A stretch of 19,325 nt of DNA from a virus. How positions within the stretch are numbered: position 1 is the first letter of the stretch; the number at the start of each line of letters is the position of its first letter. The notes beneath the pieces were generated by a model that did not search any database, was not told the DNA's origin, and saw only the letters and a list, made by a program, of their open reading frames with translations. The position numbers were made by a program, and so were the translations under genes. The stretch is taken from the UHGV virus genome UHGV-0136548; one strand, 5' to 3'. Shown one piece after another: positions 5,027-5,172 of this stretch.

Positions 5027-5098
5027 AGTCAGCCTGCCAGAAATAGATGATGGTGATTCTACCGCTAGTCATTTGTTGAATATTTAACTCAATAAAAG

Positions 5099-5115
5099 AA
5101 AATTATTAGTGCAAT
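5099..5115 (-). promoter_or_regulatory. 17-bp operator-like site (15/17 match to the recalled P1 C1 operator consensus) in the divergent control region
   Basis: Minus strand reads ATTGCACTAATAATTTT against consensus ATTGCTCTAATAAATTT. Lies in the AT-rich 146-bp gap between the divergent operons. Confidence 0.4.
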
Positions 5116-5172
5116 TTTGATTGTGAAATGTATCATTCTGCCCTTAAGTAGGTTCTTCACGAGGAAACAAAA

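Follow-up and report, generated by a model that had tools for sequence, protein, structure and literature searches.

Between a leftward structural operon and a rightward accessory operon of UHGV virus genome UHGV-0136548 lies a short intergenic gap carrying a 17-bp match to a repressor operator, directed toward baseplate-type genes. A preliminary description of this DNA, made from the sequence alone, had called such a placement unusual, and had raised the alternative that the motif family marks late promoters and not repressor sites. The question addressed here is which of the two transcription units the site serves. The stretch that was analysed comprises 19,325 nucleotides and is referred to as the window; all positions are those of the window unless P1 coordinates are given.

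Identity of the window and geometry of the gap

By sequence comparison, the window is a bacteriophage P1-like element. Positions 4400-6000 are 99.1% identical to P1 (AF234172/NC_005856), with P7, SJ46, RCS47 and many P1-like plasmid prophages about as close, and P1 73430-85182 is collinear with the window at 98.8% identity, up to an insertion in the window. Within the gap (5027-5172) every base equals that of P1 (100% identity), and a 621-bp stretch around it is carried by 496 plasmids in PLSDB, of which most are of Escherichia or Salmonella origin. The last aligned base of the window corresponds to P1 88647 and c1 is located at P1 93231-94082, so that the window stops short of c1; given the 98-99% identity to P1, the element likely carries this gene.

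The gap length of 146 bp given in the preliminary description is exact, the gap being bounded by the gene 26 and pmgL open reading frames (Table 1), and an alternative pmgL ATG at 5206, used in the P7 record, would extend it to 179 bp. The start at 5173 was favoured on two grounds: residue 5 of the long form is where the PHROG match to PmgL begins, and the TTG is preceded at 7 nt by a GAGGA. The AT-richness and the TraR-like/VRR-NUC content of the rightward operon had also been described correctly, with 29% GC at 5050-5149 against about 45-52% in the flanks, and with PmgL assigned as DksA/TraR-like and PmgM as VRR-NUC/resolvase-like by profile matches. An Rfam scan of 4600-6200 returned no RNA family at E values up to 1, and a structured RNA in the gap is therefore unsupported. 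Distant blastn searches returned 20 phage and 496 plasmid records, and, once two spurious 46-bp matches to Campylobacter phages are set aside, identity was at least 95% in every record except five from plasmids, so nucleotide search gives no deep footprint.

Table 1. Coordinates of genes, operators and promoters in and around the gene 26/pmgL gap
Feature	Position	Strand	Description	Source or support
Gene 26	4649-5026	-	Baseplate wedge subunit; first in leftward operon 26-25-7-24-6-5	PHROG 1269, E 2.7e-40
LP26	5056-5074	-	Late promoter, Lpa-dependent as annotated	AF234172
LPpmgL	5066-5084	+	Rightward late promoter; reuses the near-palindromic -22 box of LP26	Annotated in P1 record
P2pmgL	5076-5103	+	Predicted sigma-70 promoter (TTGAAT, 16 bp, GAAAAT); -10 overlaps O26	Annotated
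O26 (former Op82)	5099-5115	-	C1 repressor operator, ATTGCACTAATAATTTT	Annotated in P1 and P7 records
P1pmgL	5109-5136	+	Predicted sigma-70 promoter (GTGCAA, 16 bp, TATCAT); -35 inside O26	Annotated
pmgL	5173-5418	+	DksA/TraR-like zinc-finger protein; first in rightward operon; TTG start	PHROG 54, E 1.6e-12
'P26'	5387-5415	-	Predicted sigma-70 promoter inside pmgL, toward gene 26 through the operator	Annotated
pmgM	5421-5999	+	VRR-NUC / Holliday-junction-resolvase-like protein	Pfam VRR_NUC, PHROGs 2363 and 5702
Oppp (former Op83)	6006-6022	-	Next C1 operator, degenerate, TATGTACTAATTAATTT; between pmgM and pmgN	Annotated in P1

The 17-mer and the C1 operator family

The 17-mer is identified by its bases and its place as the already-catalogued phage P1 C1 operator O26/Op82, a member of the C1 operator family. 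It matches 15 of the 17 positions of ATTGCTCTAATAAATTT, which is quoted as the asymmetric 17-bp C1 operator consensus and has been used to titrate C1 in vivo (PMC8546580). Exactly these bases are labelled 'monovalent C1-controlled operator O26; former Op82' in AF234172 (record coordinates 78528-78544 in AF234172/NC_005856) and 'Op(26)' in the P7 record AF503408, and the annotation of O26 refers to deposit X87824; C1 binding at this site is taken here as annotated by the curators. The divergent AT-rich control region with an operator-like site, which had been proposed from the letters, is borne out by these two records. A full-text literature search for Op82 and similar names returned unrelated papers only.

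Matches to the consensus with at most three mismatches numbered four in the window against 0.09 expected, a count reached in 0 of 200 shuffles, and the remaining three are the known operators Op86a, Op86b and Op88. A weight matrix was built by leave-one-out from the 20 curated monovalent P1 operators minus O26 (19 sites), and O26 scored 24.5 bits, rank 8 over both strands of the 94.8-kb P1 genome, with a random-genome maximum of 20.7 bits (n = 20 genomes). The operator-like match reported earlier, including its orientation toward the structural genes, is thus real and far above chance. The T6-to-A variant of O26 is common to the curated operators Op72b, Op83, Oc1a and Omat.

O26 is asymmetric and directed leftward, toward gene 26. 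Among the 20 curated operators, 15 are co-directed with the promoter they overlap; with pmgL as its target, O26 would be one of five exceptions, the others being Oppp, OpmgRb and the second half of each of two bivalent operators. This orientation, the name given by the curators, and the statement in the P7 record that genes 26 and 25, with the remainder of their operon, are regulated by this operator all favour an explanation in which O26 controls the structural operon, either by blocking transcripts from 'P26' or by disturbing Lpa/RNA polymerase at LP26, relative to which it is placed at about -50 to -66; control would then be dual, early and late, as reported for mat. The expression data and the relatives described below argue against this explanation, which we consider unlikely, and place foremost among the alternatives.

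LP26 and the late-promoter family

The same gap contains a late promoter, LP26, that had been overlooked in the preliminary description. It is composed of a -22 box AAATGACTA (5074-5066), a 4-bp spacer GCGG and a -10 TAGAAT (5061-5056), and direct reading of the sequence showed no TTGACA-like -35 hexamer 16-18 bp upstream of this -10. The 11 curated late promoters have in common a 9-bp inverted repeat AAGTNACTT, AAGT(G/T)ACTT, at -22, described as their Lpa-binding site (PMC10695390), followed in 10 of the 11 by 4 bp and a -10 of the form TANNNT. Against a late-promoter matrix from which LP26 and LPpmgL had been left out, LP26 scored 19.8 bits (rank 8 genome-wide), and it has the same box and the same -10 as LPsit. 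LP26 is on this signature a P1-type late promoter, which would drive the structural operon in a manner dependent on Lpa and on host SspA.

In favour of the proposal that the 17-mer family marks late promoters, a late-promoter-grade site is located within 80 bp of three of the 20 curated monovalent C1 operators (Omat, Ossb and O26). The proposal does not hold up against the remainder of the two families: 17 of the 20 operators have no late-promoter-grade site nearby, no operator is annotated within about 80 bp of 7 of the 11 curated late promoters, late promoters carry a different motif, genes under operator control are expressed early and not late, and the consensus is the published C1 operator that titrates C1 in vivo (PMC8546580). 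We therefore give it virtually no credence.

Elsewhere in the leftward operon, an unannotated late-promoter-grade site, AAGTGACTGGTGATAACCT (3351-3369, minus strand, 17.1 bits), was located within the 5' end of gene 7, co-directed with the operon. It is the best non-annotated late-promoter match in the whole P1 genome, and may be either a chance match or a late promoter internal to the operon that serves genes 7-24-6-5.

Expression timing in P1vir

Published RNA-seq data for P1vir were used in the form of the log fold change per phage gene at 10 and 30 min (Table S1 of PMC8201110). Timing classes were defined from curated promoters, with the two tested operons left out. Libraries had been prepared with the TruSeq RNA v2 kit, which we take to be unstranded, and two time points only were sampled. 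P1vir expresses the antirepressor Ant constitutively, so that C1 is antagonised.

At 10 min, the 27 genes of late-only operons had values of 2.81-5.99 and the 21 genes with C1 operators had values of 6.02-10.0, so that the two classes did not overlap (U = 0, p = 4e-9). Gene 26 was in the late-only class (log fold change of 3.35 at 10 min, 10.41 at 30 min), and the LP26 operon as a whole (genes 26, 25, 7, 24, 6 and 5) was likewise late-only as judged from the two time points, its values rising from 3.35-4.42 at 10 min, or 3.6-4.4 for the genes after gene 26, to 9.9-11.6 at 30 min. At 10 min, pmgL (6.99) and pmgM (7.98) were within the C1-controlled early class, next to lpa (6.62) and ssb (7.53) for comparison. 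The same split was present in a dksA host, with gene 26 at 2.16 versus pmgL at 7.41 and pmgM at 7.04. The early-expressed pmgL is non-essential, and P1vir growth is improved by loss of host DksA (PMC8198154).

Early transcripts that traverse genes 5 to 26, on whichever strand, are excluded by the low signal over these genes. Because pmgL and pmgM are early and the gene 26 operon is late-only, early transcription would start within the gap and proceed rightward; the early expression of pmgL and pmgM thus indicates a rightward early promoter in the gap. Conversely, since there is no early expression of gene 26 in P1vir, no appreciable C1-repressible sigma-70 promoter would lead into gene 26, and no sign of early 'P26' activity was found, since in both hosts few phage genes had lower 10-min expression than gene 26. 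Control of the structural operon by O26 is difficult to reconcile with an operon that is late-only in both hosts where C1 is antagonised, and with the lack of a -35-like hexamer at 16-18 bp in LP26.

A leftward sigma-70 promoter with TTGCAC of the operator as its -35 was also considered, and was rejected, as the hexamers 16-18 bp downstream (TTGAGT, TGAGTT, GAGTTA) are poor -10s; the lack of early gene 26 expression also rules against it.

Polymorphism within the gap

A set of 79 gapless natural copies of the gap (48 haplotypes) was assembled from IMG/VR and genome contigs. The copies, obtained by gp26 searches of genome and viral contigs, were near-identical only, and were used for polymorphism and not for deep comparison. 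Variation was present at 31 of the 146 gap positions, a density four times that of gene 26. Of the 38 positions in the LP26 elements, the operator and the P1pmgL -10, 3 were variable, versus 28 out of 108 elsewhere in the gap (one-sided Fisher p = 0.013); for the operator alone the test is weak, with a p of 0.11.

The four longest invariant runs were 5127-5142, 5066-5078, 5105-5116 and 5047-5058. The first, the longest invariant block of the gap at 16 bp, corresponds to the P1pmgL -10 and its expected start site, the second contains the -22 box, and the fourth extends over the start region of LP26 and a portion of its -10. The third is the operator core, which was invariant in all 79 copies and is flanked at 5117-5120 by positions that are all polymorphic; the two changes within the operator are singletons in its 3' part, at operator positions 12 and 13. 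O26 is thus conserved relative to neighbouring non-coding DNA. For LP26, the -22 box was invariant in the 79 copies, and the sole variable position of the -10 was the third, an N of TANNNT.

Rearranged relatives

Two relatives with a different gene order were analysed, the Salmonella plasmid pCVMN1543 (C1 79% and Lpa 72% identical to P1) and the Cronobacter phage JK004 (C1 76% and Lpa 67% identical to P1). Both have the same operator consensus as P1, at about 20 sites each, with clear operator counterparts at ssb, pmgN, pmgR, pmgT and lpa, and in both, gene 26 and pmgL are tens of kilobases apart. Upstream of gene 26 no operator was found, the best scores being -2.8 bits in pCVMN1543 and -0.1 bits in JK004, and a correctly oriented late-type site was present (11.4 bits, weak, in pCVMN1543; 16.7 bits, strong, in JK004); in JK004 this site, one of the six highest-scoring of the genome, stops 29 bp short of the gene 26 start codon. 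That both relatives keep the late-type site and have no operator upstream of gene 26 is a further point against O26 as a regulator of the structural operon.

Upstream of pmgL, co-oriented operator-grade sites were found in both relatives, at 17.7 and 22.0 bits in pCVMN1543 and at 19.3 and 14.7 bits in JK004, with one or two small open reading frames between the operators and pmgL. Alignment of the DNA upstream of pmgL between P1, JK004 and pCVMN1543 showed no homology upstream of the coding sequence, and the operators are for this reason not positional homologs; the presence of an operator upstream of pmgL in the relatives is to be read as association, not orthology. Because the rearrangement is shared, the two relatives count as about one independent observation. 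The locus of phage D6 that was examined has no P1-type operator and no PmgL homolog and is uninformative.

An operator on the far side of pmgM was also compared. Oppp has the same minus orientation as O26, and scores 12.3 bits in the window (TATGTACTAATTAATTT) versus 18.2 bits in P1 (CATGCACTAATTAATTT). Both pCVMN1543 (454, minus strand) and JK004 (L093 4584, minus strand) retain a counterpart of it at this place and in this orientation. C1-mediated looping has been reported for the c1 region. O26 might in this way have a bidirectional or architectural role, shutting both units or looping with Oppp, 907 bp to the right, to silence the pmgL-pmgM domain, and the unusual minus orientation that the two operators share while bracketing pmgL-pmgM fits such a role, as does the retention of Oppp in the relatives. 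The degenerate Oppp of the window and the opposite direction of the upstream operators in the relatives do not fit it, and we regard it as improbable.

In both relatives the operator nearest pmgL is directly followed by a terminator-like hairpin (AAAACGCCAA...TTGGCGTTTTTTT; JK004 L093 3512-3570, pCVMN1543 85205-85260), and a conserved small open reading frame (MRVWDIPDRD...) is located between the hairpin and pmgL, an odd pairing of operator and terminator.

Predicted rightward promoters of pmgL

The two predicted rightward sigma-70 promoters, P1pmgL and P2pmgL, each match the consensus at 8 of 12 positions only, which weighs against the reading of the gap proposed below. A simple sigma-70 and terminator scan of 4900-5500 returned nothing at threshold (at least 9/12 for sigma-70), and the 8/12 promoters are neither supported nor excluded by the scan. 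The common variants in the P2pmgL -35 appear compatible with -35 function.

The annotated rightward late promoter, LPpmgL, scored -4.1 bits in the late-promoter matrix (rank 921) and does not have the family signature. Its -10, AATATT, varies at four of six positions among the 79 copies, the A at position 2 (window 5080) being T in 27 of them. The rise of pmgL from 10 to 30 min was 4.0 log2 units, no greater than the 4.1 of ssb and the 4.3 of repL, neither of which has a late promoter of its own, and no late box was found upstream of pmgL in JK004 or pCVMN1543. LPpmgL is probably not functional as drawn, and has the appearance of a near-palindromic box read backwards, not of a working promoter; a truly bidirectional Lpa promoter, built on the near-palindromic -22 box, is a remote possibility in some haplotypes.

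An 11-nt inverted repeat (5112-5122 and 5165-5175, 91% complementary, 42 nt apart) was also noted. Through it, RNA close to the operator could base-pair with the Shine-Dalgarno/TTG start region of pmgL, and this would apply only to transcripts starting upstream of about 5112 (from P2pmgL or LPpmgL), not to those from P1pmgL.

Proposed control of the two operons

The gap is the 26/pmgL divergent control region already known from P1, and on the reading that we favour as probable it holds two independent, back-to-back switches, with O26 silencing pmgL-pmgM. O26 most likely represses the rightward sigma-70 promoters of this operon; we infer both the target promoter and its occlusion, and likewise any choice between P1pmgL and P2pmgL, both of them 8/12 matches only. 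In the prophage, C1 together with its corepressor Lxc would occupy 5099-5115, covering the P2pmgL -10 and the P1pmgL -35, and bound C1 would occlude RNA polymerase and keep pmgL-pmgM silent, whereas upon infection or induction these genes would be switched on early. LP26 would be silent in the prophage with Lpa absent, and as Lpa accumulates, would fire leftward and drive genes 26-25-7-24-6-5. In the P1 record lpa has its own C1 operator, Olpa/Op94, and because lpa is C1-repressed through it, the structural operon would need no operator of its own.

The oddity pointed out in the preliminary description, an operator in front of baseplate genes, is probably misleading, since timing and relatives link the operator to pmgL-pmgM. 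With gene 26 purely late, pmgL and pmgM early, and gene 26 of the relatives without an operator, the puzzle mostly dissolves.

A single C1 bound at O26 could also act in both directions, occluding the rightward early promoters and at the same time vetoing LP26 from about -50 to -66. We consider this a long shot; if true, it would mean direct, Lpa-independent control of baseplate synthesis by C1, and a second case of dual early/late control after mat, here across a divergent region.

The site, the operator family and the adjacent late promoter are already known, the curated record of the P1 genome having listed them since 2004. What is added is a correction of emphasis, in that the RNA-seq data, the 79 copies and the two relatives suggest that O26 governs the early, non-essential pmgL-pmgM operon and not the baseplate operon, and the same data make the annotated LPpmgL doubtful. 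The result is a tidier P1 regulatory map for users of P1 transduction, CRISPRi or essentiality screens; it opens no new question and has little weight beyond housekeeping.

Comparison with other P1 control regions

O26 of the window is identical in sequence and place to O26 of P1 (AF234172) and of P7 (AF503408), and the present analysis differs from those records in the assigned target, which is the pmgL-pmgM side here and gene 26 there. LP26 resembles the P1 late promoters LPsit, LPs and LP23 in its 9-bp -22 repeat, 4-bp spacer and TANNNT -10, and differs from the other P1 late promoters in that its box is shared, on paper, with the rightward LPpmgL.

The P1 lyz/ssb gap has the same layout as the gene 26/pmgL gap, with LPlyz to the left and P2ssb, Ossb/Op21 and P1ssb to the right. 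The late promoter serves a late gene, and on the opposite side a C1 operator, flanked by the -10 of a first sigma-70 promoter and the -35 of a second, serves an early gene, as proposed for pmgL; this layout is kept in pCVMN1543. The two gaps differ in that Ossb is directed with ssb, whereas O26 is directed away from pmgL, and in that lyz has some early signal (6.05 at 10 min), whereas gene 26 has none.

The P1 mat region (Omat/Op2b, Pmat, LPmat) likewise combines a C1 operator and a late promoter within about 50 bp before a morphogenesis gene. Omat is co-oriented and at a similar distance upstream of the late promoter, which speaks for control of the structural operon by O26, and dual early/late control of mat was reportedly described by Lehnherr et al. 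in 2001. At mat, however, a single gene is the target of all three elements (operator, sigma-70 promoter and late promoter), and the -10 is shared, whereas in the gene 26/pmgL gap the late promoter has no -35 and the sigma-70 promoters face the opposite way; at 10 min, mat is at 5.08 and gene 26 at 3.35. In the P1 record, the Omat/Op2b feature is placed on the minus strand (L004 2628-2645) and its sequence, CATGCACTAATAAATAT, reads on the plus strand, so that the annotated strand appears flipped.

Divergence of the window from P1

Two larger differences from P1 were noted outside the gap. At 18142-18213, a 72-bp stretch takes the place of the lxr gene region of P1 (86834-87535, about 700 bp), and the LexA-regulated lxr gene appears to be missing from this element. 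The insertion relative to P1 occupies 11754-16490 (4.7 kb) and is located at P1 85182, inside pmgT, shortening the pmgT-like open reading frame to 242 aa; among the open reading frames that it contains are those for an Ead/Ea22-like protein (12267-12851) and a DUF551 protein (13899-14783).
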